Shown here in pieces: positions 18,984 through 38,954 of a DNA stretch of 64,000 nt. The position numbers were made by a program, and so were the translations under genes. Within the stretch, counting starts at the first letter, position 1, and every line of letters starts with the position of its first letter. Source of the DNA: a virus (taxonomy: Duplodnaviria; Caudoviricetes); IMG/VR virus record IMGVR_UViG_3300031994_000006, positions 143,795 to 207,794 of that record, one strand, 5' to 3'. The notes under the pieces were generated by a model that saw only the letters and a list, made by a program, of their open reading frames with translations, was not told where the DNA came from and ran no database searches.

Positions 18984-18989
18984 CTCAAT

Positions 18990-19422: not shown

Positions 19423-19427
19423 CCTAA

Positions 19428-19556: not shown

Positions 19557-19565
19557 CCTGTACAG

Positions 19566-20349: not shown

Positions 20350-20350
20350 T

Positions 20351-20440: not shown

Positions 20441-20449
20441 GTCCTGAAT

Positions 20450-20539
20450 GCACGGGTAAAGCGTAACTGGATGACCGCCCCGGTCTACGAAACCGGTCTA
20501 TCTGAAAAGAAGTTGCGGGTTCGAATCCCGCCCCGTGTA
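20450..20539 (+). tRNA. tRNA-Arg(ACG) with 18-nt variable arm
   Basis: GCACGGG/CCCGTGT acceptor, loop CTACGAA, canonical T arm. Confidence 0.8.
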
Positions 20540-20668
20540 CACAGACAGGGCAGCACTCCGTAGAGTCTGAGATTCACCATTCTCTTTGCGGACCATACTG
20601 TCCTTTGTCGCGGAATTCGCCGGCATGCCCGGTGATATATAAACCAAAATCAACCAAACAGCAAGACT

Positions 20669-21346: not shown

Positions 21347-21451
21347 TAAAGGGACAGGATAACACATGATAAATTGCAGATTTGAAATATTCAAATCTGC
21401 AATTTTAGCATTTATGACCTCAGGTTATATAATGCGTTAAAATATTACAAT

Positions 21452-21524
21452 CGGGATGTAGCCCAGTAGGTAGGGCGCTACGTTCGGGACGTAGAGGTCG
21501 CTGGTCCGAGTCCAGTCATCCCGA
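21452..21524 (+). tRNA. tRNA-Pro(CGG)
   Basis: Cloverleaf, loop TTCGGGA, T-loop TCCGAGT. Confidence 0.9.
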
Positions 21525-21527
21525 CTT

Positions 21528-21663
21528 CGGAAGATGGTGTAGGCGCACAGCCGGGTTGGTCCGGCACCCGCGGAAATAAGAGGATCCGGAATACCGCGGA
21601 GCAATGGGCATTCGTGCAATGCCGTATGCGGTGACCGAAGCAGCGAGCGGTCTCTTCCGTCCA
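21528..21663 (+). ncRNA. tRNA-like RNA with 7-bp acceptor stem and encoded CCA, non-canonical interior
   Basis: CGGAAGA/TCTTCCG-T-CCA with several internal hairpins; abuts tRNA-Pro(GGG). Confidence 0.45.
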
Positions 21664-21737
21664 CGGGGTGTAGCTCAGTAGGTTAGAGTACGCGTCTGGG
21701 GGGCGTGAGGTCGTCCGTTCGAGTCGGATCACCCCGA
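21664..21737 (+). tRNA. tRNA-Pro(GGG)
   Basis: Cloverleaf, loop CTGGGGG. Confidence 0.9.
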
Positions 21738-21741
21738 CAAT

Positions 21742-21813
21742 CAGGATATAGCACAGCGGCAGTGTGCATGGTTTGGGACCATGCGGTCGGCGGTTCGAAT
21801 CCGTCTATCCTGA
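21742..21813 (+). tRNA. tRNA-Pro(TGG)
   Basis: Cloverleaf, loop TTTGGGA. Confidence 0.9.
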
Positions 21814-21994
21814 CAGATCAATGAGGATCCTCTGAGATGGGTGCTCCAAGGTAGAAGCTTGAGGATTTAAACGGATAATGTTTTATGCGACAACAAAAGC
21901 AGCTGTTCATTCAGCAGCGCCCGTGGGTATTAATCCCGATGAAAATATCGCCTCATTTGATTTAAACGGATACAAACAGACAAAGACATACAGT

Positions 21995-22438
21995 ATGAGA
22001 TTTCTTCGTTCAGAGACCGTCGTATCGGTCGAGGATCTTAAGGCACAGGGACTGCAGGAGCAGCGCGTGCAGACGGACTATCACGGCAAGAACCGTGAGA
22101 GCATGTGGGGCTATCTCCTCGGGGACGGCTCGGTCGTCCTGGTCAACACGCCGGTTGCCGCCCATCCGTTTCCGCTCTGGGGACTTGTCGCGTCGCCTGA
22201 GCATGTCAAGGACGGCGACGGCAAATGCAGGCTTGTCATTCTTGACGATATCATCAAGGAGACTCCGGACGAGGCGGTTATCACCCTGATGCAGGAGGCA
22301 TATGACTTCCTGAATGAGAAGGGCGAGCTCAAGGAGGACGGTACCCTTGATACAGGACTCTATATCGATCGCCGCAATGCGGAAATCGAGAAATTGCGCC
22401 TGGAGAAGGTCGACAGGCCTGAAGAGGATGAACGCTGA
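21995..22438 (+). CDS. hypothetical protein
   Basis: ORF with likely start MRFLRSE at 21995. Confidence 0.6.
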   Translation: MRFLRSETVVSVEDLKAQGLQEQRVQTDYHGKNRESMWGYLLGDGSVVLVNTPVAAHPFPLWGLVASPEHVKDGDGKCRLVILDDIIKETPDEAVITLMQEAYDFLNEKGELKEDGTLDTGLYIDRRNAEIEKLRLEKVDRPEEDER

Positions 22439-22439
22439 T

Positions 22440-22607
22440 ATGGAAGACGTCGACAAGGAGATATTGAACCGTGACAGGCACTGGAACGAGTTCATAGCAG
22501 AATGGGAGTCTGAACACGGCGTATCCGCGTCGGGCGAGGACTCTGAGGTCCTCTTCAGGGAGTTCATGACCTGGGAGGAGAACAGAGGTTTGAATCCGGG
22601 ACAGTAG
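22440..22607 (+). CDS. hypothetical acidic small protein
   Basis: MEDVDKEILNRDRHWNEF..., coupled to the upstream stop. Confidence 0.5.
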   Translation: MEDVDKEILNRDRHWNEFIAEWESEHGVSASGEDSEVLFREFMTWEENRGLNPGQ

Positions 22608-22617
22608 CCCGGGTTAT

Positions 22618-22691
22618 GTTCCCGTAGCTCAGCCGGTTAGAGTATCACCATGACAAGGTGGGGGTCGGCGGTCCGAATCCGCCCGGGAACA
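22618..22691 (+). tRNA. tRNA-Val(GAC)
   Basis: Cloverleaf, loop ATGACAA, T-loop TCCGAAT. Confidence 0.9.
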
Positions 22692-22692
22692 C

Positions 22693-22983
22693 ATGAGCAC
22701 GTTTGACGTATACAGATCCTGCGGCCGCGTGGTCGGCGGCAGGGAATCGAAGGCCGCGGCCGATCTCGCGTTCGGCAGATGTTCCTGGTGGAAACGGGGA
22801 TGGCTGCATTTCGTCGTATGGAACGAGAGGCGCAGGCGGTATAATGCCGCCGAGATCAGGCTGCCGGGTGACAGTCCGTGGTCCGGGTGCCTGCAGTCCG
22901 TATTTACCGCCCTCACGGCCCTGTTCTTCCTGTCGGTGCTCATATATGCGGCCGTGGAAATAATAGGATCGATGTTCCCGTAG
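22693..22983 (+). CDS. hypothetical membrane protein
   Basis: 96 aa with a C-terminal hydrophobic helix; the 3' end overlaps tRNA-Val(TAC) by 10 nt. Confidence 0.45.
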   Translation: MSTFDVYRSCGRVVGGRESKAAADLAFGRCSWWKRGWLHFVVWNERRRRYNAAEIRLPGDSPWSGCLQSVFTALTALFFLSVLIYAAVEIIGSMFP

Positions 22984-23048
22984 CTCAGCCGGTTCAGAGC
23001 ACCTGGCCTACAACCAGGGGGTCGGCGGTTCGAATCCGTCCGGGAACA
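22974..23048 (+). tRNA. tRNA-Val(TAC)
   Basis: Cloverleaf, loop CCTACAA (C33). Confidence 0.88.
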
Positions 23049-23055
23049 CAGACGC

Positions 23056-23129
23056 ACGCCCGTAGCTCAGCGGATCAGAGCGCCGGACTCCGGATCCGGA
23101 GGTCGCGGGTTCGAGTCCCGCCGGGCGTA
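23056..23129 (+). tRNA. tRNA-Arg(CCG)
   Basis: Cloverleaf, loop CTCCGGA. Confidence 0.92.
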
Positions 23130-23143
23130 CGGATATATACACC

Positions 23144-23848
23144 ATGATAAAATCAGTTCAATACTGTTTACATTGCGGTAAACCTTTGAATAAGACACAG
23201 AAAAAATTCTGTTCAAGATCTTGTTCAGCATCATTTACGAATAAGGGAAAAATTCACTCAGAGTCAAGCAGACATAAATGCAGTGAATCTGTAAAACGTA
23301 TCCGTAGGCATACTGAAAGAATCTGTAAAGTATGCGGATGTTCTTATTATTATGTCAAACATATATCCACTAAGATTTTCTGTTCTCATAAATGTTTTGA
23401 ATATTATAAATCACATAAGAATGAATTTCTTTCACCTGATTCAATCAGGCGGATGTCAGAAGGCGGACGGAAGAGCATGGATATACAAAAAGATTCCAGG
23501 AGATCCAGAAATGAAATAGAGTTCTGTTCATTATGTGAGGAAAAATTCGGTACAGCTGCAGTTTTGCATAATATACCTTACTTTAATGGATGGGATGCTG
23601 ATGTTATTATACCTGAATTAAAAATAGCGATATTATGGAATGGTGCCTGGCACTATAAACAGATATATGATAAAAGTTCATTGATTCAGATTAAGAATCG
23701 TGATAACATAAAAATATCTGAAATCAAAAAAGCAGGATTTATTCCATATGTTATTAAGGATTTGGGAAAGGCAAATTCTGAATTTGTCAAAAATCAATTT
23801 AATATTTTTTGTAAATGGATTGATGACCTTTCAGAATCTGTGCATTAA
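23144..23848 (+). CDS. putative homing-type endonuclease (Zn-finger repeats + Vsr/PD-(D/E)xK-like C-terminus)
   Basis: CLHCG..FCSRSC and CKVCG..FCSHKC repeats; DADVIIPELKIAILWNGAWHY; visibly AT-rich. Confidence 0.65.
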   Translation: MIKSVQYCLHCGKPLNKTQKKFCSRSCSASFTNKGKIHSESSRHKCSESVKRIRRHTERICKVCGCSYYYVKHISTKIFCSHKCFEYYKSHKNEFLSPDSIRRMSEGGRKSMDIQKDSRRSRNEIEFCSLCEEKFGTAAVLHNIPYFNGWDADVIIPELKIAILWNGAWHYKQIYDKSSLIQIKNRDNIKISEIKKAGFIPYVIKDLGKANSEFVKNQFNIFCKWIDDLSESVH

Positions 23849-23863
23849 ATATATAAATAGTTT

Positions 23864-23880
23864 AGTTCTTTGACTTATTG
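23864..23880 (+). promoter_or_regulatory. rrn boxA-like site
   Basis: AGTTCTTTGACTTATTG ahead of the Met/Met/Ala/tmRNA run. Confidence 0.6.
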
Positions 23881-23890
23881 AAACCTATAT

Positions 23891-23975
23891 AGCGGGATGG
23901 TGTAGTTGGTAACACAACAGCCTCATAAGCTGTGGACAGATAATGCTTGCGCAGGTTCGAGTCCTGCTCCCGCAA
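23891..23975 (+). tRNA. tRNA-Met(CAT), 1:72 mismatch, 17-nt variable arm
   Basis: Loop CTCATAA, canonical T arm. Confidence 0.75.
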
Positions 23976-23987
23976 CATAATTAACAT

Positions 23988-24059
23988 CGCGGTGGTGGTA
24001 GCAATGGTAGCTCGCAAGACTCATAATCTTGAGACGTGGTTCGAATCCAACGACCGCAA
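23988..24059 (+). tRNA. tRNA-Met(CAT), initiator-like C1:A72, imperfect T stem
   Basis: Loop CTCATAA; CGCGGT/ACCGCA acceptor. Confidence 0.6.
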
Positions 24060-24064
24060 CAAAG

Positions 24065-24142
24065 ATTCGGCTATTGGTTGGATTACTTCTGTAAACTTCT
24101 TAACCATGACATCCAGGAATTCATCCTTCCGTCTTTCCGAAT
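24065..24142 (+). ncRNA. Y-RNA-like scaffold copy 7
   Basis: ATTCGGCTAT...TACTTCT...TTTCCGAAT. Confidence 0.55.
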
Positions 24143-24238
24143 TGTTCTTTCCGGGGATGACGACATGTACGGCAACCGGTTGCCGTGAAACAGGTCCGTC
24201 TGATGACGTTTGTCCGGTGACGCATGTCCACCCGGGGT

Positions 24239-24336
24239 TTCCGGCTATCGGCCAGATTACTTCTATGCAGCGGGCGTTGACCGTCCGCGGCAGACCATCT
24301 TACACAGTCTTGTAACATCTGTCTGTATTTCCGGAG
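24239..24336 (+). ncRNA. Y-RNA-like scaffold copy 8
   Basis: TCCGGCTAT...TACTTCT...TTTCCGGA with two internal hairpins. Confidence 0.55.
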
Positions 24337-24340
24337 TTTT

Positions 24341-24414
24341 GGGGTATTAGCTCAGTTGGCCAGAGCGCTTGCTTCGCATGCAAGAGGTCGACGGTTCGAA
24401 TCCGTCATGCTCCA
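24341..24414 (+). tRNA. tRNA-Ala(CGC)
   Basis: Cloverleaf, loop TTCGCAT, G3:U70. Confidence 0.92.
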
Positions 24415-24415
24415 C

Positions 24416-25183: not shown

Positions 25184-25629
25184 GGGCTTGTATTTGGGTT
25201 TGACGGGCGGAATGATAAGGAGGACATGCAGGAAGGCAGTTTCCATAAAGGCAAAGCCAATAACCGGCAACAAGAAAGCAAAGGTCGTCAAGATGACGGC
25301 AGCTCGCGCGACCATGAAGATGGCTGCTTAATCCGATAGGATTCAAGTTTCGCGCCTGGGATTGCAGGGGATCCCAAGGGACATAAGGGCGAGCCTTCGG
25401 GCAGCCTGCCCCCGCCGACGAGGTCTGGACGGCATCCCTTACCGCAAAGCCGTAACCTGGTGGAACAGTTGACCTCCGGTCAGCCCCTCAGCGGAAGATC
25501 CTCCGGGATCGTTTGACCGCACAGGAGAAGAATACTCCTGAGGCCTCCGGGCCTGAACAAATTGAAAAGCATGTACAATCCTCTGATGCTGAACGTTCGG
25601 ACGGGGGTTCGAATCCCCCCAGGTCCACC
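25184..25629 (+). ncRNA. ssrA: tmRNA
   Basis: GGGCTTG/CAGGTCC acceptor with G3:U70, TTTTGAC 5' motif, T arm GGGGG-TTCGAAT-CCCCC, tag ORF 25266-25331 GNKKAKVVKMTAARATMKMAA*. Confidence 0.9.
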
Positions 25630-25734
25630 CTGAAAGCGGTCCAATAGTCGGATCGTTTTTTATTATGACATGAGAAGAACCTGTCATAATAAATAATATG
25701 ACCAACCTGGCAAGGCATGCCTCAGGGCATGTAC

Positions 25735-26040: not shown

Positions 26041-27357
26041 ATGAAAAAGTTTATTTTCTTTGCGGTGGCGCTTCTGTCTGTCCTGGTCTGGTCCTGTACC
26101 AGCCATGATATCGATACGCCCGACTGGTCCGCTCAGCAGAAGGCGGGCTATGCGAATGACTTCAACACTGCCTTTGGCGTCAGCGCGGCTGACTATGCCA
26201 ATCACCAGTGGGGAACCGACATCATCCCGATGATTGATATCACCGGTACCTCTCAGGCCCGTACCCGTGCGGCGGATCCGAAAGGCAACGAATGGGCGGC
26301 CAACGGCTATACCGTGCCCGGAGCCATCACGGCATCTGAACTCGAGGATGTCCTTGAGGTATTCAACAAGAAGGGCGATGCCACCTATACCTCACTGGTG
26401 GACTGGGACTGCTTCTTTGTGCAGCAGGTATACAAGGGCACCGCCAAGTATACGAATCACGCAGGCGGTCAGGTGACCGGTTCCGAACATATGGACTGGC
26501 TCTGCACCGTTACCAACAAGCATGTGGAGGTCGTCAGCTGGTGGCCCTATGAGGAGAAGATTACCATCGGCGCTGACTATGATGATCATATCAATAACTT
26601 CAACAACGGCAACTGCGGCGCATGGGACGGCCTGATGCTCATGGTCAATACGAATTCCAATAAGTTCGGATTCAAGAGCTCTGAGGACAACGGACATGTG
26701 TTCTACAACTTCCGCATGGAGAAGATCAAAGGCAATTACTATGTCGGATTCGACTTTGAGGCCGCGGGCGCCAATCCCAACGAGCAGGTCGACCGTGACT
26801 TCATCTATAATGACTGGATTGTGAAGATCGTGCCGGGTAAGGGCGTCACGCCTCCTCATCCCGACGTGGACCGCGTCCGTATCATGTGTGAGGACCTCGG
26901 TACAGCTCATTCGGACTTCGACTATAACGACGTCGTGTTCGATATCAAGTTCATCAAGAACGGCAGCACTGTTACGGCCGATATCGTACTGCAGGCCGCA
27001 GGCGGCACGCTGCCCCTGACCGTAGGTGGATATGAGGTTCATGAACTGTTCGATGTCGCCGTCACGGATATGGTGAATACCGGCGCAGGTCCCCAGCGCG
27101 ATCCCGTGCCCTTCACTGTGACGATGCCCCGCTCTGACTATGCGACCGCATGGGAGGCCATCAATGACCTGCCTGTCATCGTGCTCTACAGAGCGTCCGC
27201 TCCCATCACGCTTACCGTATCCCCGGGTACCCCAGCCGAGATGATTGCGGTGCCTTCTACGACCGCATGGCCCGGTGAGCGTCAGTCAATACGCAACAGG
27301 TATCCCGCGTTCGTCGACTGGATCAGCGATTCCACGGTGCAGTGGTGGAACGAGTAG
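26041..27357 (+). CDS. Bacteroidales-type lipoprotein (DUF4842/LruC-like C-terminal domain)
   Basis: Lipobox VWSC; RIMCEDLG..SDFDYNDVVFD..LQAAGGTLP motif, recalled from Prevotella lipoproteins. Confidence 0.7.
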   Translation: MKKFIFFAVALLSVLVWSCTSHDIDTPDWSAQQKAGYANDFNTAFGVSAADYANHQWGTDIIPMIDITGTSQARTRAADPKGNEWAANGYTVPGAITASELEDVLEVFNKKGDATYTSLVDWDCFFVQQVYKGTAKYTNHAGGQVTGSEHMDWLCTVTNKHVEVVSWWPYEEKITIGADYDDHINNFNNGNCGAWDGLMLMVNTNSNKFGFKSSEDNGHVFYNFRMEKIKGNYYVGFDFEAAGANPNEQVDRDFIYNDWIVKIVPGKGVTPPHPDVDRVRIMCEDLGTAHSDFDYNDVVFDIKFIKNGSTVTADIVLQAAGGTLPLTVGGYEVHELFDVAVTDMVNTGAGPQRDPVPFTVTMPRSDYATAWEAINDLPVIVLYRASAPITLTVSPGTPAEMIAVPSTTAWPGERQSIRNRYPAFVDWISDSTVQWWNE

Positions 27358-27376
27358 CATACAGCTGACAAATATG

Positions 27377-27404
27377 AAAAGGCCGCAGGAATGCGGCCTT
27401 TTTT
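27377..27404 (+). terminator. intrinsic terminator
   Basis: AAAAGGCCGCA-GGAA-TGCGGCCTTTTTT. Confidence 0.8.
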
Positions 27405-27451
27405 GTTTCTGTGCGTTATATGTTTATGAAAATATCAAGTAATACTGGCGC

Positions 27452-28099
27452 ATGATTATATGCGGATATGCCGGAATCGGCAAGAGCTGGCTCGGTCATA
27501 ACATGCCGGGCGTCATGGATCTGGAGTCCACGCCCTTTCAGAAGGACTGGGCGACATACTGCAGGTGCGCCATGCACTATCACAGCCAGGGCTATCTCGT
27601 CCTGTTGTCGTGCCACAGGGAGATCAGGGAGGCCGTGCACAAGGCCATTCATATGTGCTACTTCGACGAGGTGACGTTCATGCCGGATCCCGGTGACAAG
27701 GAGCTGTACATGAAGAAGTACGAGGAGCGCGGCAACACGCCGGAGTTCATCAGGATGCAGTCTGAGAACTGGGATAGGTGGCTTGACGAGCGGTCACAGG
27801 GGATCATCGCCGAGCATTGGGAGTACCTCAGGCCGGGTGAGAACCTGTACCAGGGTATACTCAGGCTGTCGGATCCCAATTACGCATGGAAATACTGCGC
27901 GGCTGATCCGTATTGCGTCGAGATGCCGCCCGTATGCCCGGCAATCGGCAACTGCTATAACCCGTTCAGGGACATAGTCGCCAGATGGCCCCAGGACGAG
28001 CTCCGGAAGGCCTGGGCTGACAATGCCAAGGAAAACGGCTGGAAACGCTCTGGTGAGACCGTAAGGCCTGTTAAGGAAGGCTATGGGAAATATGATTGA
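27452..28099 (+). CDS. P-loop NTPase/kinase-like protein
   Basis: N-terminal Walker A GYAGIGKS. Confidence 0.7.
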   Translation: MIICGYAGIGKSWLGHNMPGVMDLESTPFQKDWATYCRCAMHYHSQGYLVLLSCHREIREAVHKAIHMCYFDEVTFMPDPGDKELYMKKYEERGNTPEFIRMQSENWDRWLDERSQGIIAEHWEYLRPGENLYQGILRLSDPNYAWKYCAADPYCVEMPPVCPAIGNCYNPFRDIVARWPQDELRKAWADNAKENGWKRSGETVRPVKEGYGKYD

Positions 28100-28478
28100 G
28101 AACATAAACATCGGTATCATTAAGGACGGCGTCACGAAGGCCGGCAATGTCTGTGTCGCCGACGTCGCCGGCCGCGAGGTCAGGGTCTGCTATGTCAGCT
28201 GGCCGATACCGAAGAATGATCACGGGAAGGACTCGAACTATTCGGTCCCGTCATGGGCCGCAAGTCACCGGCAAGGCCCGGCGGATTTCCTCGCGTTCCA
28301 GCTCGGACGGTGTGAGACGGCCGTCAAGGTCATTCCGGTCAGGGAGGTGTCGAGGATGACTGTCTCGTTCAATGCGGACTACGGTCTCCTGCCGGTATCG
28401 TCGGTTTTCGGATGGACCGACAGGCCCGTACCGCTTGAGAAGCTGCCGCCGGGTCCCGTACAGAGAAAACTTCTATAA
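28092..28478 (+). CDS. hypothetical protein
   Basis: ORF packed in the plus-strand operon. Confidence 0.55.
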   Translation: MIENINIGIIKDGVTKAGNVCVADVAGREVRVCYVSWPIPKNDHGKDSNYSVPSWAASHRQGPADFLAFQLGRCETAVKVIPVREVSRMTVSFNADYGLLPVSSVFGWTDRPVPLEKLPPGPVQRKLL

Positions 28479-28490
28479 ACAGCTTGAGAT

Positions 28491-28808
28491 ATGAATACAG
28501 TGAGTGAAATAAGGAACGGAAACCCCAATAAGGTGAACTACCGTTACAACTATGCCATCGAGTATACCGATGAGACGAAGGACTGCGGCAGCAGGACCGT
28601 GTTGTCCGACAGGATGGAGGACGTCACGGAGGACGTCAGGAAGTTCATCCGTGATACCGTTGAGGATTTCAACAAGACTCCCCATGATACGCTCGGTATT
28701 ATCGATATCCGTGTATACGGCCTGTGCCGTACGGAGTACCCTCAGTTTGATCAGCAGGATTTCCATGAGAATGTCATAGTGCCGGCCTTAAAGGATGCCC
28801 TGAAATGA
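28491..28808 (+). CDS. hypothetical protein
   Basis: 105 aa ORF in operon. Confidence 0.6.
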   Translation: MNTVSEIRNGNPNKVNYRYNYAIEYTDETKDCGSRTVLSDRMEDVTEDVRKFIRDTVEDFNKTPHDTLGIIDIRVYGLCRTEYPQFDQQDFHENVIVPALKDALK

Positions 28809-29335
28809 AAAAGGACAGGGTTGTAAAGGCCTCGGCCGTCATGGCCCTTCAGAAGGATGCCGTCCGGACCGTAATTACGGTCCGGTCAGGCGATGTCATG
28901 GAGGTCGCCGACAAGGCGGTCGCCGATCTTACCAGGGATATTGACAGGTATCCTGAGATAATATGCAATGAGCTTATCAGGAATATTCTTCTCATGGCCG
29001 AGCACGGCGACTATTACATGAACTATGATACCGACAGGCTGTATGAGCTGCTTCCCGGATGGGATAAGGCCGAGCCGTCTGAGAAGAACGCGATAATCCG
29101 CAAGGTTGTGATCATGATGCTTGACGCGGGTTATATGATCAAGCCGTGCTATCTGTTCGGCGACGTGCTCTGGCACCTGGAGATCTCATGGTCGGACGAT
29201 ATGAGAAAGAAGGCTAACAGGAAGGCTGATAAGATACACAGAAACGAGCGCCGCCGTGAGTCTGTCAGGAAATTCTTCAGGGGTATCGCGGAATTCATGA
29301 GATGCGGTCTTTCATCGGAATACAGGAACCTATGA
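28805..29335 (+). CDS. hypothetical protein
   Basis: 176 aa ORF, ATGA overlap. Confidence 0.6.
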   Translation: MKKDRVVKASAVMALQKDAVRTVITVRSGDVMEVADKAVADLTRDIDRYPEIICNELIRNILLMAEHGDYYMNYDTDRLYELLPGWDKAEPSEKNAIIRKVVIMMLDAGYMIKPCYLFGDVLWHLEISWSDDMRKKANRKADKIHRNERRRESVRKFFRGIAEFMRCGLSSEYRNL

Positions 29336-29739
29336 AAAAGGACAGGAAGGTTACATGGACGCAGGTGTCGAACTGCAGCTTCAGATGCCCTGGCTGCTGC
29401 GAGATCTCGAATGCTTTCATAAAGACACTGGATGCCGAATGGGCTAAGTTCAGGGCGGACGAGGAAAGGAAACGGCAGTTTGAGTGCGTGCCTGATGTCG
29501 CGGTGATTATCGAGAAGATGATTCCTGAAATGGACGAAAGGATAAAGCAGGCCGCGGACTGCGGCAATTACAGGACGACGCTCTACCTGGATCATCTGGA
29601 CAGGCATCTTGAGTACTATAAGGCCAAATACAGTCCTGATGAGATATACAGCGAATTGCGTAAATATTATAAGTCTCGCGGATATAAGATGGATTCGGAC
29701 ATGAATCATGTACTCGGCTTCGAAATCTGGTGGAAATAA
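29332..29739 (+). CDS. hypothetical protein
   Basis: Start MKKDRKV, ATGA overlap; similar start to the upstream gene. Confidence 0.6.
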   Translation: MKKDRKVTWTQVSNCSFRCPGCCEISNAFIKTLDAEWAKFRADEERKRQFECVPDVAVIIEKMIPEMDERIKQAADCGNYRTTLYLDHLDRHLEYYKAKYSPDEIYSELRKYYKSRGYKMDSDMNHVLGFEIWWK

Positions 29740-29833
29740 TGCAAAAAAACGTTAAAAAGATAAATAAAAGGAGTTTTTTAAAGGATTCGGCGTCAGTACC
29801 GGCGTTAAATAGACAGAACAAAGCAAAGAAGAT

Positions 29834-29950
29834 ATGAGATCGTTGTTACAAAAATCATTCAGCTCAAAGTGCCTCCTTAAGGGCATTCAGAGTATGTCGC
29901 AGTTTACCTGCTGGCATATTCAGCTGGATAATATGTACACGGTCGAGTAG
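29834..29950 (+). CDS. putative attenuator leader peptide B (MRSLLQKSFSSKCLLKGIQSMSQFTCWHIQLDNMYTVE)
   Basis: 38 codons; 29 of codons 2-31 are read by tRNAs of the downstream array; the last codons form a pairing arm. Confidence 0.75.
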   Translation: MRSLLQKSFSSKCLLKGIQSMSQFTCWHIQLDNMYTVE

Positions 29951-30087
29951 CGAATCAGGAGTTCAGAGACTGTGTATGAATCCGGGAGAAAACGGAAAGA
30001 CGCAGTCAAGTAAAGGAACCCAATCACAAAGTTTCCATAATTTCCAAGGGACTGCGTAATCGAAAGAGGACGCAGTCCTGTTCTTTT
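29936..30087 (+). terminator. attenuator B: five alternating pairing segments ending in an intrinsic terminator
   Basis: TACACGGTC 29936, GACTGTGTA 29968, ACGCAGTC 30000, GACTGCGT 30050, ACGCAGTC 30070, then GTTCTTTT. Confidence 0.75.
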
Positions 30088-30094
30088 ATACATC

Positions 30095-30171
30095 GGGGGA
30101 GTAGCTCAGTAGGTAGAGCGCCGGACTGAAAATCCGGGTCGTTAGCGGCGGTTCGATTCCGCCCTCCCCCA
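30095..30171 (+). tRNA. tRNA-Phe(GAA)
   Basis: Cloverleaf, loop CTGAAAA, 9-nt variable region. Confidence 0.9.
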
Positions 30172-30176
30172 CTGAG

Positions 30177-30193
30177 AGTTCTTTGACATGTTG
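30177..30193 (+). promoter_or_regulatory. rrn boxA-like site
   Basis: AGTTCTTTGACATGTTG just after the first tRNA of array B. Confidence 0.6.
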
Positions 30194-30231
30194 GCACAGC
30201 TGAATGAACGGACGGAAGGCCGTCCGTATAT

Positions 30232-30307
30232 TGGGAGATAGTTTAGCAGGTTAAAATTTCGGTCTGATACACCGGCGTCCCGGGTTCGAATCCCGGCCTC
30301 CCAACCA
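30232..30307 (+). tRNA. tRNA-Ile(GAT)
   Basis: Cloverleaf, loop CTGATAC, encoded CCA. Confidence 0.85.
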
Positions 30308-30378
30308 AAACTAAATCATATTTGATCTATGGATAAACGTGATGACAAATCCGGTAAACGGATTACACCAGTCTAACA

Positions 30379-30469
30379 GCCTCCATCGTATATCGGTAAG
30401 TGTCTGGAGACAGGCGGATTACTTCGGTCTTTTAAACCGACAAGCAGGGTTCGACTCCCTGTGGGGGCA
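30379..30469 (+). tRNA. tRNA-Lys(TTT) with hairpin insertion in the D-loop
   Basis: GCCTCCA/TGGGGGC acceptor, loop CTTTTAA; 29-nt D-loop containing TGTC-TGGA-GACA. Confidence 0.75.
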
Positions 30470-30626
30470 CGATCAGTCAGGCCTGCGGCATAGGCGCCCA
30501 ATTTGCCGTAGGAGGACTGTGTAGTTGCGTAACGGCTTACACCAAACGTACGGGATACTTAGGGTCCGTGCGGAGCCCGGGTGGCGAAAAAATTCCCGCG
30601 CCGTGCCGAGCGATAGCGGCACATTC

Positions 30627-30700
30627 GCTCCGTTAGCTCAGTTGGTTAGAGTAGGTGTCTCTTAAACATCGGGTCCAGGGTTCGAATCCCTGCCGGAGCA
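30627..30700 (+). tRNA. tRNA-Lys(CTT)
   Basis: Cloverleaf, loop CTCTTAA. Confidence 0.9.
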
Positions 30701-30768
30701 CTTTCGTTCAGTGAATCGCCTCCGTTCAGTAATTGCTGAACGGAGCGGTTTTACTGAACGCCTTATAT

Positions 30769-30840
30769 TGGGGTATAGTATATCGGTTATTATTTCGGAT
30801 TCTGGTCCCGAAGAGCTCTGTTCGACTCAGAGTGCCCCAA
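30769..30840 (+). tRNA. tRNA-Gln(CTG)
   Basis: Cloverleaf, loop TTCTGGT. Confidence 0.82.
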
Positions 30841-30846
30841 CGACAC

Positions 30847-30917
30847 TGCCCTGTGGTGTAACGGCGGCACATCAGCTTTTGGATCTGACAGACCGGGTTC
30901 GACTCCCGGCGGGGCTG
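30847..30917 (+). tRNA. tRNA-Gln(TTG)
   Basis: Cloverleaf, loop TTTTGGA. Confidence 0.82.
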
Positions 30918-30946
30918 CGATACATAGGGAAATTTATTTGTAATAT

Positions 30947-31777
30947 ATGGATTTTGATTTCGACAGCCCCAGGAATGGAAGACAGATTGTCAATGAGGTA
31001 TTCGAGACCTTTTACGGTAATCCTGTAAGAACCTGTTATAGAATTTCAAGGATTGACAGATCTAAATGGACACGTCTTGACTACGCACTTGAACGATATA
31101 ATAATTATTTGTCAAAATATAATACGGTTTCATTCCAAGGTGATATTGACCGCGGTATATTACAGGAAGGACTTGTCCTTTCATATCCGGTAAAGAAAGT
31201 CATGGATGAAATCAGGAAATGTATGGAGTCTGACGGTAATATAATAGAGGCTTTAGCTGAATCTGAATCAGTTATAAAGATTCTTGTGGCTAAGGGATTT
31301 ACCGATAATGTCAAGGAATCTCTGAAATCTTTGATAGATTTATGTGGATGGCATCTGACAGGCAGCGGTGAATATTCCAAAGGACTTGATGTCATATATT
31401 ATGAGTCAAAATTTCCGGCGGATATTACGGATCTGATATATTCAAAATATAAAAAACTCTATCATATAACGCCTGCCCGGAATTTCAGGTCGATTGAGAA
31501 GAAGGGACTGATACCGAGATCCTATAACAAGAGATCGGACTATCCGGACCGTGTGTATTTCCTGAAGACTGATAATGCGGCAGAGTATGAAAACCTCGCG
31601 AAATCGTCGAATCCGGATATTCATGAATGGTCGCTCCTTGAAATAGACATCTCAAAGGAACCCGTCACCGGACGCCGGTACAGATTCTATAATGATCCGT
31701 TTACGAACAATGCAGTTTTCACATATGACAATATTCATCCCGGACTTGTAACCCTTAAGAGGACTTTCCGGGTATGA
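30947..31777 (+). CDS. protein with C-terminal ADP-ribosyltransferase-fold (Tpt1/KptA/DUF952-like) domain
   Basis: KLYHITPARNFRSIEKKGLIP...RVYF...LLEID...YNDP...AVFTYDNIHP; visibly AT-rich. Confidence 0.6.
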   Translation: MDFDFDSPRNGRQIVNEVFETFYGNPVRTCYRISRIDRSKWTRLDYALERYNNYLSKYNTVSFQGDIDRGILQEGLVLSYPVKKVMDEIRKCMESDGNIIEALAESESVIKILVAKGFTDNVKESLKSLIDLCGWHLTGSGEYSKGLDVIYYESKFPADITDLIYSKYKKLYHITPARNFRSIEKKGLIPRSYNKRSDYPDRVYFLKTDNAAEYENLAKSSNPDIHEWSLLEIDISKEPVTGRRYRFYNDPFTNNAVFTYDNIHPGLVTLKRTFRV

Positions 31778-31795
31778 TGCGTTTAATTTTAACAT

Positions 31796-31867
31796 GGGGG
31801 TCTTAGTTTAACGGTAGAATGACAGATTGTGGCTCTGCAGACGTAGGTTCGACTCCTACATTCCCCC
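31796..31867 (+). tRNA. tRNA-His(GTG)
   Basis: Loop TTGTGGC, G-1:C73; two acceptor mismatches. Confidence 0.8.
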
Positions 31868-31873
31868 CTTTAC

Positions 31874-31944
31874 TGGTCCATGGTGTAACGGTAGCACGTC
31901 AGATTCTGGCTCTGGAAGTGCGGGTTCGAATCCTGCTGGACCAA
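31874..31944 (+). tRNA. tRNA-Gln(CTG)
   Basis: Cloverleaf, loop TTCTGGC. Confidence 0.9.
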
Positions 31945-31966
31945 CGTTGCAGGGTCGCTCCCTGCC

Positions 31967-32037
31967 GCGCCGACGGCTGGTAAGCCGCGGTCCAGGACCC
32001 CAATCCTCACCGGGAGGTTCGATTCCTCTATGGCGTG
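31967..32037 (+). ncRNA. degenerate tRNA-like element
   Basis: T arm GGAGG-TTCGATT-CCTCT, AGGA-CCCCAA-TCCT arm, weak acceptor. Confidence 0.4.
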
Positions 32038-32127
32038 CAACTGGATATTTAAACGTTGAGGGCCGTGGAGGTCTTCGGTCCACCGGTAACCAGTCCGGCG
32101 TCCGGCCGTACGATAACGGCCGCATAC

Positions 32128-32198
32128 AGGCCTGTGGTGTAACGGTAGCATGCCGGTCTCCAAAACCGTCGGTCTTGGTTCGAGTCCTGGCAGGCCTG
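32128..32198 (+). tRNA. tRNA-Trp(CCA)
   Basis: Cloverleaf, loop CTCCAAA. Confidence 0.9.
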
Positions 32199-32354
32199 CT
32201 TCGTTCTGGTCACGAAGAGCGAGCTCCGTAAAGTTACCGAAACTCCGCCTGCGGCAATTCGCGATAGCCTGCAGACCGGTCACGAAAAGTAGGGAGGATG
32301 GGAGACGTAGGACTTGAGAAAACCCTAACGTATGGTAATGGGCAGGACGATTAT

Positions 32355-32428
32355 GCCGGCATAGCTTAGCGGTCTAAAGCGCAGCACTCATAATGCTGAG
32401 ATCGATGGTTCGAATCCATCTGCCGGTA
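32355..32428 (+). tRNA. tRNA-Met(CAT) (elongator Met or Ile2)
   Basis: Cloverleaf, loop CTCATAA. Confidence 0.85.
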
Positions 32429-32430
32429 CA

Positions 32431-32502
32431 GAGTAGTTGTCCGAGCGGTTTAGGTCGTGGTCTGCAAAACCACGCAGGTGGGTTCGACTCCCACACTGCT
32501 CT
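32431..32502 (+). tRNA. tRNA-Cys(GCA)
   Basis: Cloverleaf, loop CTGCAAA, U73. Confidence 0.9.
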
Positions 32503-32517
32503 CAAATTAAATTATAT

Positions 32518-32595
32518 AAAAAACGGTGTAACTTCGCGGGTGCGGAGCAGGGCCCAAAGCTCTGAAGACAGGTCCGAGTCCTGTACCCGTTTTTA
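32518..32595 (+). ncRNA. degenerate tRNA-like element
   Basis: AAAAACGG/CCGTTTTT stem, CAGGGC-CCAAA-GCTCTG, ACAGG-TCCGAGT-CCTGT. Confidence 0.4.
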
Positions 32596-32598
32596 TAT

Positions 32599-32682
32599 GC
32601 GCCTGTGGCGGAATTGGTAGACGCGCCACTTTGAGGTGGTGGTGCCCGAAAGGGTGTGCAGGTTCGAGTCCTGTCAGGCGTA
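32599..32682 (+). tRNA. tRNA-Leu(GAG)
   Basis: Class II cloverleaf, loop TTGAGGT. Confidence 0.92.
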
Positions 32683-32687
32683 CATGA

Positions 32688-32764
32688 GGTCCCGTAGCTC
32701 AGCGGATTTTCAGAGCATCAATCTTCTAAATTGAGGGTCGTTGGTTCGAATCCAACCGGGATCA
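32688..32764 (+). tRNA. tRNA-Arg(TCT)
   Basis: Cloverleaf, loop CTTCTAA. Confidence 0.9.
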
Positions 32765-32881
32765 CGCAGATACGGACTTGAGGACGTGGGTGAGACTCCC
32801 TTAAGTGCTCGGACGATAGTAAGTCCTTGAGCTGCCTGACAATAGTACGGCCCGAGTGATCATAGAGCCGGAAGTCCATTC

Positions 32882-32968
32882 GGAGAGTAAGCCCTGACGG
32901 TGATGGGTGCTCGTTGGAAGCGAGTTGGTGCGTGAATAGCGCATTCCGTTCGACCCGGATGCTCTCCG
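32882..32968 (+). tRNA. tRNA-Ser(GGA), 8/4 fold
   Basis: 8-bp acceptor GGAGAGTA/TGCTCTCC, 4-bp T stem TCCG/CGGA, loop TTGGAAG. Confidence 0.85.
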
Positions 32969-32979
32969 CATAAAATAAT

Positions 32980-33063
32980 GGAGGCTAAACCCTGACGGTG
33001 AGGGGGACTGTCTTGAAAACAGATCGTACCTTCGGGTATTCCGTTCGACCCGGATGGTCTCCG
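32980..33063 (+). tRNA. tRNA-Ser(TGA), 8/4 fold
   Basis: GGAGGCTA/TGGTCTCC acceptor, TCCG/CGGA T stem, loop CTTGAAA. Confidence 0.85.
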
Positions 33064-33068
33064 CATTT

Positions 33069-33155
33069 GGAGGGTAAGCCCTGACGGTGATGGGGCATGT
33101 CTCGAAAACATTGCGTACCTTCGGGTATTCCGTTCGACCCGGATGCCCTCCGCCA
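33069..33155 (+). tRNA. tRNA-Ser(CGA), 8/4 fold
   Basis: GGAGGGTA/TGCCCTCC acceptor, TCCG/CGGA T stem, loop CTCGAAA, encoded CCA. Confidence 0.85.
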
Positions 33156-33167
33156 GACATAACATAA

Positions 33168-33416
33168 TTGATTATGAGCTATAAGGAAAAAACGTTTTTG
33201 TTTATGGTCGCTGTCATAATGATGGGCATTTTGCTTTATCTGAAGGATCAAAATGAAAAGCATGACGCAGCCTTAAAGGCACAGCTTGAGAAGGATATTA
33301 AGGAAGATGCCGCTGAAAGGTGGAACCATGCCGTCGACAGTACCGTATTCGCCGGAGATCTGTGTATACAATGTCCGTACTGTGGCAGGATAATCAATTC
33401 AGACAGCTTCAAATAA
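33168..33416 (+). CDS. small membrane-anchored protein
   Basis: N-terminal hydrophobic helix, C-terminal CPYCG. Confidence 0.55.
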   Translation: MIMSYKEKTFLFMVAVIMMGILLYLKDQNEKHDAALKAQLEKDIKEDAAERWNHAVDSTVFAGDLCIQCPYCGRIINSDSFK

Positions 33417-33512
33417 GGAGAGGTACCCAAGTCGGTGAAGGGGTCGGTTTGCTAAACCGATAGGTCGGGAGATAACCCCGGCGCGCGGGTTCGAGCCCCG
33501 CCCTCTCCGCCA
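33417..33512 (+). tRNA. tRNA-Ser(GCT)
   Basis: Canonical class II cloverleaf, loop TTGCTAA, CCA. Confidence 0.92.
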
Positions 33513-33515
33513 TTC

Positions 33516-33601
33516 ACCCCCGTGCCGGAATTGGTAGACGGGCTTGACTCAGGATCAAGTGGGCCGGAAGGCCCGTGCGGGTTCGAGTCCCGCCGGGGGT
33601 A
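33516..33601 (+). tRNA. tRNA-Leu(CAG)
   Basis: Class II cloverleaf, loop CTCAGGA. Confidence 0.92.
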
Positions 33602-33624
33602 CTTAAAAATAAACGGACTTGCTT

Positions 33625-33873
33625 ATGATAGCCCATGATCTGAAGACAATCGTCAAAGGACGCGCGGATCTTGACTGTGTCAGGAGCGGAGGCGTCGCAA
33701 CATATCACATCACCGTCGCCGACGGCAGCGTGTATACGCTTGATATCGATATGACCGACAGGGCGGACGTGGGCGCCACGGCGTCGTTCATGGCCCATTA
33801 CGACAGGTCCGTCATACTCATGAGGTGGATCAGGCGCGCCTATGACAGGGGTGAGTTATACAGGATTCGCTGA
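33625..33873 (+). CDS. hypothetical phage protein
   Basis: MIAHDLKTIVKG...ILMRWIRRA; fills the gap between two tRNAs. Confidence 0.6.
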   Translation: MIAHDLKTIVKGRADLDCVRSGGVATYHITVADGSVYTLDIDMTDRADVGATASFMAHYDRSVILMRWIRRAYDRGELYRIR

Positions 33874-33879
33874 TATAAT

Positions 33880-33959
33880 ATCCCTGTGGCGGAACGGTCT
33901 ACGCAGCCGTCTCAAAAGCGGTCCCGGAAGGGGTCCGGGTTCGAATCCCGGCAGGGATA
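33880..33959 (+). tRNA. tRNA-Leu(CAA)
   Basis: Class II cloverleaf, loop CTCAAAA. Confidence 0.9.
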
Positions 33960-33967
33960 CATATCAC

Positions 33968-34060
33968 GGCCCTACAGCCGGACTGGTCAGCAGGCGCGGG
34001 ACTTAAAATCCTTGAGCGTATGGGGACATGCGCGTCCGGGTTCGAATCCCGGTGGGGCTA
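33968..34060 (+). tRNA. tRNA-Leu(TAA)
   Basis: Class II cloverleaf, loop CTTAAAA. Confidence 0.85.
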
Positions 34061-34310
34061 CGTTTGTGACTTCCGGGGTTTCCGGGCGTTAAACAGATAA
34101 ATATAGGGCTGTACTTCGTACGGCCTTTAAAAATAACATTTATACAGCGAGATTTCCCGCAACGGACGCGCCTTTCGTAACGGCGGCCGCGGGGAGGATT
34201 AGATTCCGGTTTTGCTTTTGCGGAGAGACATGCCAGGCGCGTAGAGTTCTTAGCGTAGCGCGTCCGGCGGGGATCCCGGGTCTGGGATGATACGGCCGCA
34301 GGTTTTTATT

Positions 34311-34751
34311 ATGATGAGAAGAATTATTTTGGCTGTCCTGATGGCCCTGTCGTTTTCGGCAACCGTCACGGCACGCCAGGCCGGTAGCACGGCCGTAAAG
34401 AGCGGAGAGTACCCATTGCAGCGCGTCATGGACGCGATCATACAGGTGGAGTCACAGGGAAACCCGAGGGCGCACAACAGGAACGGCGACTGTGCCGGAA
34501 TCCTGCAGATAACCCAGGTGCTCGTCAGGGAGGCGAATCAGATACTGAAGGACAAGAAGTCCAAGAAGAGGTATACGATGGCCGACAGGTATGACGCCGA
34601 GAAGTCGAAGGAGATGTTCAGGCTTATCCAGGCCAAGTACAATCCCGGCAATGACGAGGAGAAGGCGATGCGCCTGTGGAACGGAGGACCGGGATATTCG
34701 GTCAGGGCCACGGACGGGTATGTGAGGAAGGTACGAGCGAAGCTCAGGTAA
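34311..34751 (+). CDS. secreted lysozyme-like / lytic transglycosylase
   Basis: Signal peptide; MDAIIQVESQGNP, GILQIT and RLWNGGP motifs. Confidence 0.75.
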   Translation: MMRRIILAVLMALSFSATVTARQAGSTAVKSGEYPLQRVMDAIIQVESQGNPRAHNRNGDCAGILQITQVLVREANQILKDKKSKKRYTMADRYDAEKSKEMFRLIQAKYNPGNDEEKAMRLWNGGPGYSVRATDGYVRKVRAKLR

Positions 34752-34815
34752 CCAGAGAGCAGAGAGATCATGAGGGTTCGGCAGGTTAGGCCGGATCTTC
34801 ATTTTTTGTCTAACC

Positions 34816-34887
34816 GCCCCGGTAGCTCAGGGGTAGAGCGCTTCCTTGGTAAGGAAGAGGCCGGCGGTCCGAATCCGCCCCGGGGCT
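34816..34887 (+). tRNA. tRNA-Thr(GGT)
   Basis: Cloverleaf, loop TTGGTAA, T-loop TCCGAAT. Confidence 0.92.
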
Positions 34888-34915
34888 CTTATTCAGCTGT
34901 GCCTTTTTCCGTTGC

Positions 34916-35368
34916 ATGCGTTTAATGTATATGGAGAAGCATCGTTACAGTCATTTCGTCTATTTCTGGGTATCATATGTCGCCAGGCACAGGCTGTATG
35001 ACCATACTTCCAGCTATACGGATTACGGGAACTGCGTCGTCAGGCAGCCTGTCAGGCAGTTCGGCAAGGAATTCAACTCGGCGTATGTGACCGAGCTGCT
35101 GTCATACCAGCCGGAGCATCTCATGAAGAGCAGGTTCTATGACGGCATATACGAGCCGGGCTGTGACATAACCGTCATATCATTCATGCCGGCGACTAAG
35201 GACATGCTTACCGACCTGAACAAGTTCGATGCGCAGAAATGGCTTTACTTCGTACAGAAGAATATCAGGGAAAAGGCCGCGGCCGGTCCCGGTGAATACT
35301 CGAAGGAGCTGCCCAGGCTGATGACCGATCAGCGGTTCCATGAACTTGAGATGCTATATGATAGATAA
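34916..35368 (+). CDS. hypothetical protein
   Basis: ~150 aa ORF; the true start is probably MEKHRY. Confidence 0.6.
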   Translation: MRLMYMEKHRYSHFVYFWVSYVARHRLYDHTSSYTDYGNCVVRQPVRQFGKEFNSAYVTELLSYQPEHLMKSRFYDGIYEPGCDITVISFMPATKDMLTDLNKFDAQKWLYFVQKNIREKAAAGPGEYSKELPRLMTDQRFHELEMLYDR

Positions 35369-35371
35369 TAC

Positions 35372-35851
35372 ATGGAAGAGAAATTGGAGCCTGAGTTCCT
35401 CTGGCGTTATAAGGCGTGCGTATACAGGACGAAGATCGACGGCGTATCGGTGTTCCTGATGATATATCCGAGAAAGGACGAGGCGTACGGTCCCGACAGG
35501 ATCAAGTACACTGAATGGGCAGTCACGCTGCTCATATCCAGGAAGCGCGCCGTGAAGGAATTCAGCTTCGACAAGCTGAACTGGAACAAGTTCGAGAACA
35601 TGCAGACGGGATCCGGCACTGTAAAGGGACTGCTGTATGCAAAGAAGGCCCTGACGCATTTCCTGACCGTGTGGCTTCCGGATTACAGGAAGAGCAGGAC
35701 GGAAGCGTACAGGGACCGCGTATGCGTCTCCTGGACCGATAACAGGCGCCGTGACGTATACAGACGCTATCTGTCGGAGCTCGGCTTTACGGAAGGCAAC
35801 ATCGACCGCGAGGCGAGCTCGTGCATGTATGTCGACATAATGAAGATATAA
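35372..35851 (+). CDS. hypothetical protein (possible GNAT-like fold)
   Basis: TGSG..GLLYAKKAL...W.D.RRRDVY.RYL.ELGF pattern. Confidence 0.55.
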   Translation: MEEKLEPEFLWRYKACVYRTKIDGVSVFLMIYPRKDEAYGPDRIKYTEWAVTLLISRKRAVKEFSFDKLNWNKFENMQTGSGTVKGLLYAKKALTHFLTVWLPDYRKSRTEAYRDRVCVSWTDNRRRDVYRRYLSELGFTEGNIDREASSCMYVDIMKI

Positions 35852-38093: not shown

Positions 38094-38369
38094 TTATACT
38101 GTCTGGTCGACGACCTGTCCGCCGAGTTTTGTTATCTGGTCGATGAGCTGTGCGCGCTGTTTCTGATACGTAAGCGTGAGCTGGTTCAGCCTGAGCTGGA
38201 GCTGCTGCACCTGCTGCTGATTCTGCTGCTGGGACTGGGCCTGATCCTGCGCCTGCTTAGCGGCCGCGGCGGCCTGCTGCTGGTTCTGGACCGGCGTCTG
38301 GGCGGCCGCTACGTTCTGAGACGCCTTGCCGAAGTTCTCATACAGGCGGACTTTCACGTTCTTTGACAT
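38094..38369 (-). CDS. small Gln-rich coiled-coil protein
   Basis: 91 aa, RLYE near the N-terminus, GGATAAATA motif upstream. Confidence 0.6.
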   Translation of the reverse strand: MSKNVKVRLYENFGKASQNVAAAQTPVQNQQQAAAAAKQAQDQAQSQQQNQQQVQQLQLRLNQLTLTYQKQRAQLIDQITKLGGQVVDQTV

Positions 38370-38447: not shown

Positions 38448-38954
38448 ATGAATACCGAAAATACACAGGCCTTTGACAACGGCGGCAGGATCCTCGGATC
38501 CGTCGACAGTATGTCGTATCTCCCCGGATACGGCAGGCTGAGCCGTCTGCTGCAGCGGTGGCGCAGGAGGCATCATACCGGTATCGCGGATCAGTGGGTG
38601 TCATTCGGTGCCAGGGCGTTCGACATAGGTCTCGCATTCACGAAAAACGACCGCGCCTATTTCAGGCACGGCCGGATATCATACTATACGGAGTCGGTCT
38701 TCGGCGTCATGCAGGAGCTCAATCTCCGCAGCGCGATAGTCAGGCTGACATACGAGGGACCTGACTGTCCTGAGTTCAATAAGAAATGGCACGACAGGTT
38801 CCACAAGATGTGCAGGATGCTGGAACAGATTTATCCGAACATACTTTTCTGCGGCGGATGCGACCGCATGGGGAACCGCCTCTATACCTTCAACGGTGAC
38901 GGCCTGTCGGATCCGTCACTTATAGACTGGAATCTTAAGACGAGCAGGTTCTAA
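38448..38954 (+). CDS. PI-PLC-like phosphodiesterase-fold protein (possibly degenerate)
   Basis: DSMSYLP..., IADQW..GARAFDI..., FRHG pattern. Confidence 0.5.
   Translation: MNTENTQAFDNGGRILGSVDSMSYLPGYGRLSRLLQRWRRRHHTGIADQWVSFGARAFDIGLAFTKNDRAYFRHGRISYYTESVFGVMQELNLRSAIVRLTYEGPDCPEFNKKWHDRFHKMCRMLEQIYPNILFCGGCDRMGNRLYTFNGDGLSDPSLIDWNLKTSRF

Follow-up and report, generated by a model that had tools for sequence, protein, structure and literature searches.

A putative leader-peptide transcription attenuator before a phage tRNA array, with a leader that lists the codons of the array

The locus and its two tRNA arrays

The DNA analysed here (the window) covers the final 64 kb of a linear IMG/VR virus record of 207,794 nt. 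The record is 76% complete by the CheckV estimate and a 443,820-nt contig on record carries proteins identical to window proteins, so the true genome may exceed 208 kb. All tRNA genes of the record are inside the window, where they form two co-oriented arrays on the plus strand, array A (15716-24415) and array B (30095-34888, about 5 kb). A phage-encoded tmRNA (25184-25630; Rfam, 72.6 bits) is located between the arrays, and this ribosome-rescue RNA adjoins units that would depend on stalled ribosomes. ARAGORN found 18 tRNA genes in array B, and three more were obtained from Rfam and folding: Ser(UGA) (32980-33062) and Ser(CGA) (33069-33151), and a weak Lys(UUU) (30400-30469), all missed by ARAGORN, though for Lys(UUU) the counterpart in the relative L002 is called by ARAGORN. 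Array B starts with tRNA-Phe(GAA) (30095-30172, plus strand), continues with 20 more tRNA genes and three ORFs (30232-34888, plus strand), and has 20 distinct anticodons; it also contains further terminator-like hairpins. For array A, Tyr(GUA), Arg(ACG) and another CAU tRNA were found beyond the ARAGORN set. The two arrays jointly decode 60 of the 61 sense codons and overlap at ATG and AGG only. Two tRNA-like genes called by ARAGORN (18041-18115 and 19457-19532) are unusual in their anticodon loops, of 2 nt ('gg') and 4 nt ('tcat'), and lie below the Rfam gathering threshold.

Each array is preceded by a short reading frame. In front of array B, leader ORF B (29834-29950, plus strand) starts with ATG at 29834, comprises 38 codons and ends with TAG at 29948-29950; its peptide showed no family and no notable feature. 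In front of array A, a parallel unit, called attenuator A here (15328-15552, plus strand), would serve that array and contains leader A (15328-15441). No Shine-Dalgarno motif was found before leader B, and its 5' flank is A-rich, which is normal here because the genes of this phage generally lack such motifs (the core was found for 13 of 127 long ORFs). Another small frame, ORF0 (29739-29837), overlaps both the upstream stop codon (TAATG) and the leader start (ATGA), so translational coupling was considered at first; as a conserved gene ORF0 was rejected, since the homologue L007 has an in-frame TGA. Further upstream, 26041-27357 encodes a 438-aa protein with a lipoprotein-type signal (a hydrophobic stretch, then SC), which keeps its synteny in relatives and matched no Pfam or PHROG family.

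Two upstream motifs are common to both leaders. The motif ATGCAAAAAAA (29739-29749, plus strand), invariant in seven homologues, occurs only twice in the 208-kb genome, at 29739 and, as the other strand of the palindrome, at 15253-15267 upstream of leader A. The second motif, AAAAGGAGTTTTTT (29766-29779, plus strand), is a candidate promoter or regulatory element, and its form AAAA(N)GGANTTTTT has no genome-wide occurrences other than those at 29766 (68 nt before the ATG of leader B) and 15269 (59 nt before that of leader A). The sequence and placement of both motifs suggest a common promoter or control region; reading with the sigma-70 or Bacteroidota consensus identified no leader promoter.

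Downstream of tRNA-Phe, array B has the 14-mer GAGTTCTTTGACAT (30176-30189, plus strand), and a further copy (15656-15669) follows attenuator A. A third copy, consisting of the last 12 nt, is located at 38358-38369, about 80 nt upstream of the ORF at 38448-38954. The exact 14-mer was located 173-179 nt 5' of the 16S gene in one Muribaculaceae and one Prevotellaceae genome, and four Sphingobacterium loci have it after the spacer tRNAs and before 23S; it was exact in 6 of the 20 Bacteroidota loci scanned, and the similarity to the phage copy in array B exceeds the 14-mer. E. coli rRNA operons carry boxA at leader and spacer positions, and the phage motif resembles E. coli boxA (GCTCTTTAACAA). 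Because GAGTTCTTTGACAT occupies the boxA positions of Bacteroidota rrn operons, it is plausibly a host-like rRNA-operon boxA, that is, a site of processive antitermination; the literature searched for the boxA sequence gave nothing relevant. The match to Bacteroidota rRNA operons also indicates that the host is probably a member of the Bacteroidales. Reading GTTCTTTGACAT as a sigma-70 -35 box, which would have spoken against the attenuator, was rejected, since there is no sensibly spaced -10 and it stands at the boxA position in Bacteroidota rrn operons. About 20 nt past each boxA-like motif, and 4-5 nt before the next tRNA, there is a stable GC tetraloop hairpin (ACGGACGG-AAGG-CCGUCCGU at 30208-30227, plus strand, with its counterpart at 15691-15710 after the array-A copy), and the order of boxA-like motif and hairpin resembles the boxA-boxB order of lambda nut.

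Codon content of leader B

The preliminary description of this DNA had reported that 29 of the 30 codons at positions 2-31 of the leader are decoded by array-B tRNAs, and a recount confirmed this number as well as the single exception, GGC, which is an array-A codon. In this sensor zone (29837-29926, plus strand) 19 of the 20 anticodons of array B are covered, all but Ser(GGA), again as described before, and 17 of the 20 have an exact Watson-Crick codon there. The coordinates given earlier for the ORF and for segments 1-5 (below) were all correct.

We compared this composition with the whole 208-kb genome and with a random model. Among 190,042 stop-free stretches of 30 codons in six frames, a score of 29/30 was reached by only two, both of them in this ORF. 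A first-order Markov null, built from the 90 nt of the ORF itself and conditioned on open frames, gave at least 29/30 in 3 of 54,310 sequences and a coverage of at least 19 anticodons in 7 of 54,310, and none had both together. When every codon was drawn from set B, a coverage of at least 19 had p 0.02-0.04. Six of the seven non-B codons of the leader lie within its last seven positions (p about 2e-5, combinatorial count).

Leader B samples 12 amino acids. For Arg, Thr and Ile, some isoacceptors belong to array A and others to array B, and the leaders divide the corresponding codons identically: leader B has AGA, ACC and ATT, and leader A has CGT/CGC/AGG, ACA/ACG and ATA. Since arrays and leaders are split alike, the codon match concerns tRNA species and not amino acids.

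Pairing segments, predicted folding and conservation

A relay of five complementary segments had been proposed from the end of the leader to the array; we found all five in place, and mutually exclusive pairings were computed for them. Segment 1 ((G)TACACGGTC; GUACACGGUC; 29935-29944) lies inside codons 34-37. Segment 2 (GACTGTGTA at 29968-29976; GACUGUGUAU, 29968-29977) is the partner of segment 1 or 3, and segment 3 (ACGCAGTC; ACGCAGUC; 30000-30007) is the partner of segment 2 or 4 and the 5' strand of the predicted antiterminator. Segment 4 (GACTGCGT at 30050-30057; GGGACUGCGU, 30048-30057) is the strand common to antiterminator and terminator, and segment 5 (ACGCAGTC at 30070-30077; ACGCAGUCCU, 30070-30079) is the 3' strand of the predicted terminator. 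A U-rich tail (GTTCTTTTAT; GUUCUUUUAU; 30080-30089), identified from the sequence and a consensus scan, follows; all these elements are on the plus strand. One and the same 8-mer makes up segments 3 and 5; segment 4 is complementary to it, with segments 1 and 2 as near copies. Within the leader, codons 21-23 contain UCGCAGU (29896-29902), which duplicates segments 3/5 in part.

The computed helices were 10 bp and -12.5 kcal/mol for 1:2, 8 bp and -9.5 kcal/mol for 2:3, 8 bp and -10.7 kcal/mol for 3:4, and 10 bp and -16.0 kcal/mol for 4:5; the last two exclude each other through segment 4. Helix 4:5 was listed as terminator-like in the consensus scan, and the predicted terminator, formed by 4:5 and the tail GUUCUUUUAU, ends 5 nt before tRNA-Phe. 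The U-tract of this tail is interrupted, which leaves the strength of the terminator uncertain. The region 29925-30094 folds with z = -3.5, and a chain of at least three mutually exclusive helices, each of at least 8 bp, was absent from all 3,000 dinucleotide shuffles and present at about six loci of the genome.

We then folded the growing transcript. With segment 1 free, the minimum free energy (MFE) series was 1:2, then 3:4, then 4:5; helix 3:4 belonged to the MFE structure for transcript ends 30058-30070, and the terminator appeared after segment 5 had emerged. With the RNA masked to 29962, as by a ribosome at the stop codon, 2:3 formed and persisted, 3:4 never formed, and 4:5 came next. 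The two outcomes proposed earlier, 1:2 with 3:4 after an early stall and 2:3 with 4:5 after complete translation, were thus reproduced by the folding model. At equilibrium the terminator state was the lowest in every state (-48.1 vs -39.9 kcal/mol), so read-through would have to rest on kinetics. The barrier from antiterminator to terminator was 6.2 kcal/mol, compared with 5.8 kcal/mol for the E. coli trp attenuator (sequence from NC_000913.3, same growing-chain analysis), which showed the same equilibrium flip to the terminator. The preliminary description would have been given up if the alternative stems had turned out not to be energetically competitive; with a barrier that resembles that of trp, they are competitive in this calculation.

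For a stall map, each codon in turn was placed in the A site, masking of the RNA extended 14 nt beyond the first base of the P site, and pair probabilities were computed for a transcript ending at 30066. The results showed that, with the upstream RNA masked as by queued ribosomes, the probability of 3:4 was at least 0.96 at codons 2-31, except at codon 18 (0.26), and at most 0.05 at codons 32-39. The UCGCAGU copy at codons 21-23 may account for the outlier at codon 18. The switch fell at 31/32 when the 3' edge of the ribosome was set at +14 to +16, at 32/33 for +11 to +13, and at 30/31 for +17. The computed switch at 31/32 matches the boundary at which the array-B codons stop, in line with the earlier proposal that the relay explains the deviant last codons: in the model the pattern would break there because a ribosome stalled past codon 31 would mask segment 1 and thereby report 'finished'.

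The RNA without a ribosome behaved differently from the five-segment proposal. A sixth element, segment 0 (29838-29850, plus strand; codons 2-6), paired with 29934-29944 in the MFE structure, and the probability that segment 1 is paired upstream was 0.84-0.98. The naked RNA folded as 0:1 + 2:3 + 4:5, and folding of the entire leader RNA (29786-30094) gave z = -6.0, which marks strong structure. This refines the proposal of five segments; since segment 0 pairs with segment 1 in naked RNA, an untranslated transcript is predicted to terminate and not to be read through. With a lone ribosome stalled at codons 16-23, segment 0 re-paired with segment 1 and the computed state was OFF, so an ON state at these codons would need trailing ribosomes or steric hindrance.

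The parallel unit was analyzed in the same terms. In leader A, 34 of the 36 codons are array-A codons (Markov null, 16 of 25,998). Folding predicted an antiterminator of 15443-15453 with 15514-15524 and a terminator at 15516-15545 followed by U7, both on the plus strand. The antiterminator had a probability of at least 0.83 for stalls at codons 2-35 and of 0.00 with a ribosome at the stop codon, and the antiterminator strand begins past the stop codon, while array-A codons continue to the end of the leader. The preliminary description had held that both attenuators follow the same output logic, and the computed stall dependence is indeed alike.

The homologue set (eight sequences covering the unit) was found through flanking proteins only, and scans of IMG/VR and JGI for more distant relatives gave nothing usable. 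The eight sequences are 96-100% identical over 29740-30094, with all segments intact, and the tRNAs and the spacers between them are equally conserved. This near-identity may reflect recent spread rather than selection, the two looking alike here because the whole tRNA block, spacers included, is 96-100% identical. No compensatory change was found in the relay helices of these eight homologues. None of the seven variable relay sites is inside a segment; they are in loops or linkers, or they strengthen 1:2, and the chance that seven sites all miss the segments is about 0.09 (estimate). At position 29977 the base is U in this genome and L011, and the remaining six homologues have C, so that the pair G29935-U of helix 1:2 becomes G-C. 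The leader varies solely at codon 14, which reads CTC in this genome and two others and TCC/TCT in five, and its synonymous sites are otherwise invariant. TCC and TCT are Ser(GGA) codons, so the change remains within set B and raises the coverage to 20/20 (p 0.005 given set membership).

Several parts of the flanks vary more. The gene at 29332-29739, 5' of the leader, has 52-93% amino acid identity among relatives (64% nucleotide identity in L001) in surroundings of 88-100% nucleotide identity, which points either to allele swapping or to rapid evolution of the gene. In a hypervariable patch (29787-29799, plus strand), 12 of 13 positions vary in the eight homologues, with flanks 96-100% identical, and every version retains a short YYGG...CCGG stem. 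In L002, homology ends directly past the U-tail and a different tRNA-Phe comes next; comparison of L002 2338-2420 with 30090-30175 of the window shows this other tRNA-Phe filling precisely the interval from the terminator tail to the boxA-like motif, as though the first tRNA gene could be exchanged like a cassette. For the gene upstream of leader A, distant homologues (40-53% identity) were found, none of them beside tRNA arrays.

Proposed regulation, alternatives and known systems

The reading that we favour, and consider rather likely, is that a ribosome-mediated leader-peptide transcription attenuator gates array B and that its leader is a codon inventory of the array. On this model the array-B tRNAs are probably made only when ribosomes decode the leader codons badly. 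In the mechanism that we infer, with transcription and translation coupled in the host, transcription would enter from upstream and a ribosome would translate the 38-codon leader. If an array-B tRNA, any of about 20 species, were scarce or unusable, the ribosome would stall at codons 2-31 and leave segment 1 free; 1:2 and 3:4 would form, 3:4 as a kinetic trap, segment 5 would be left without a partner and no terminator would arise, and the polymerase would enter tRNA-Phe and the array. Under smooth decoding, the ribosome would reach codons 32-38 or the stop codon and cover segment 1, so that 2:3 and 4:5 would form and the hairpin and U-tail would terminate transcription. The OFF state would also be taken up when there is no translation, with segment 0 (codons 2-6) holding segment 1 and 2:3 and 4:5 forming downstream. 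Polymerases that read through would meet the boxA-like motif and plausibly become resistant to termination along the 5-kb array; antitermination of this kind could explain how one attenuator would govern a whole array that contains terminator-like hairpins. The net result would be a negative feedback in which tRNAs are produced until the leader is readable.

A wider proposal takes the two leaders, the relays and the boxA-like sites together as a phage-encoded homeostat of the tRNA pool, in which the loss of any single tRNA would activate the matching array; we find the case for it about evenly balanced. Each leader would act as a test strip with one codon per isoacceptor, and the restored supply would shut the array off again. 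Possible triggers would be, for example, cleavage by a host anticodon nuclease or decay of host tRNAs during infection.

The same attenuator might respond to another signal, namely general translation capacity or amino-acid supply; it would then not sense tRNA loss, and any slowing of ribosomes, for instance by starvation or host shut-off, would open the array. A leader that samples 12 amino acids would stall under many conditions, a ribosome does not distinguish an uncharged from a missing tRNA, and the structural results fit this signal equally well. The codon match, however, is one of isoacceptors, with Arg, Thr and Ile divided between the leaders as between the arrays, and the regulated products are tRNAs, of which an extra supply would be no relief of amino-acid starvation; we therefore regard this signal as unlikely.

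Two further explanations do without an attenuator. The hairpin 4:5 is the most stable element and part of the MFE structure in all states, and no promoter was mapped in the interval from the upstream gene to the leader, as would suit an ordinary terminator at the end of an operon of the genes at 26041-29739; the array would then be self-starting, the small ORF irrelevant or untranslated, and the repeats incidental. This is clearly improbable in our judgement, since it leaves unexplained the genome-unique codon composition and the second matching leader, the duplicate 3/5 competing for segment 4, and the coincidence of the switch point with the codon boundary. The repeats could instead be read as protein binding sites, that is, an operator or processing array of five 8-9-nt repeats, with the ORF encoding a small functional peptide. 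Their regular spacing (32, 32, 50 and 20 nt) would suit this reading, and the invariant synonymous sites of the ORF are what is expected of a nucleic-acid signal. Elsewhere in the genome, however, the relay 8-mers recur 4 and 9 times at scattered places, where about 3 copies are expected, and this lack of enrichment argues against dispersed operator sites, so that the operator-site reading was rejected. In addition, the alternating orientation with a terminal hairpin and U-tail is the signature of competing RNA helices, and the peptide is featureless, the pattern being carried by codons and not by residues. We hold binding sites to be highly improbable.

Phage tRNA arrays are usually viewed as aids to codon usage or as replacements for tRNAs destroyed by defence systems, and to our knowledge hardly anything is known of their regulation. 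The full-text literature searched yielded no description of tRNA genes under leader-peptide control. The homeostat, if true, would amount to a counter-defence coupled to a sensor, and it would be the first case in which leader-peptide attenuation controls tRNA genes. A leader that lists its own array's codons would imply that decoding is measured per isoacceptor and that tRNA synthesis is paid for on demand, and it would carry classical attenuation beyond amino-acid biosynthesis into the translation apparatus. The unit would be a compact natural sensor of tRNA availability, and it would join attenuation and rRNA-type processive antitermination in a single transcription unit.

Leader-peptide attenuation, multi-segment relays as in his, and multivalent leaders as in ilv and thr are textbook systems. 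The his attenuator of Salmonella and E. coli has six segments, A-F; it terminates when there is no translation, reads through upon a stall, and terminates upon full translation. The candidate attenuator of array B (attenuator B) resembles it (RF00514) in a short leader presumed to be translated, consecutive exclusive helices, a predicted intrinsic terminator and three predicted states, and has six segments with the same parity once segment 0 is counted. It differs from his in the placement of codons, since the his leader repeats one codon seven times inside the first stem, whereas attenuator B distributes about 20 different codons along 90 nt that precede segment 1, and in its targets, which would be tRNAs and not biosynthetic enzymes. 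Neither RF00514 (His_leader) nor RF00513 (Trp_leader) had a match in the genome, and none of the Rfam leader families was found at E<=1 over 29700-35500. With the E. coli trp attenuator, in which untranslated transcripts terminate, attenuator B shares a strand common to antiterminator and terminator, and in both the terminator wins at equilibrium and the antiterminator would win by forming first; trp, in contrast, has four segments, with the stall codons inside segment 1.

A T-box likewise ties a specific tRNA state to expression through the choice between antiterminator and terminator, but it binds uncharged tRNA directly, is independent of translation and senses one tRNA; a T-box search here gave no match. 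The GAGTTCTTTGACAT motif after both attenuators is identical to the motif at Bacteroidota rrn boxA positions. Unlike rrn boxA, the phage motif, known from its sequence and position, heads tRNA arrays downstream of what would be a conditional terminator. As in the leaders of ilvGMEDA (Ile/Leu/Val) and thr (Thr/Ile), a single leader would sense several aminoacyl-tRNAs; those leaders address two or three amino acids of one pathway, whereas leader B addresses 12 amino acids and 19-20 isoacceptors, with a codon-level match to tRNA genes.
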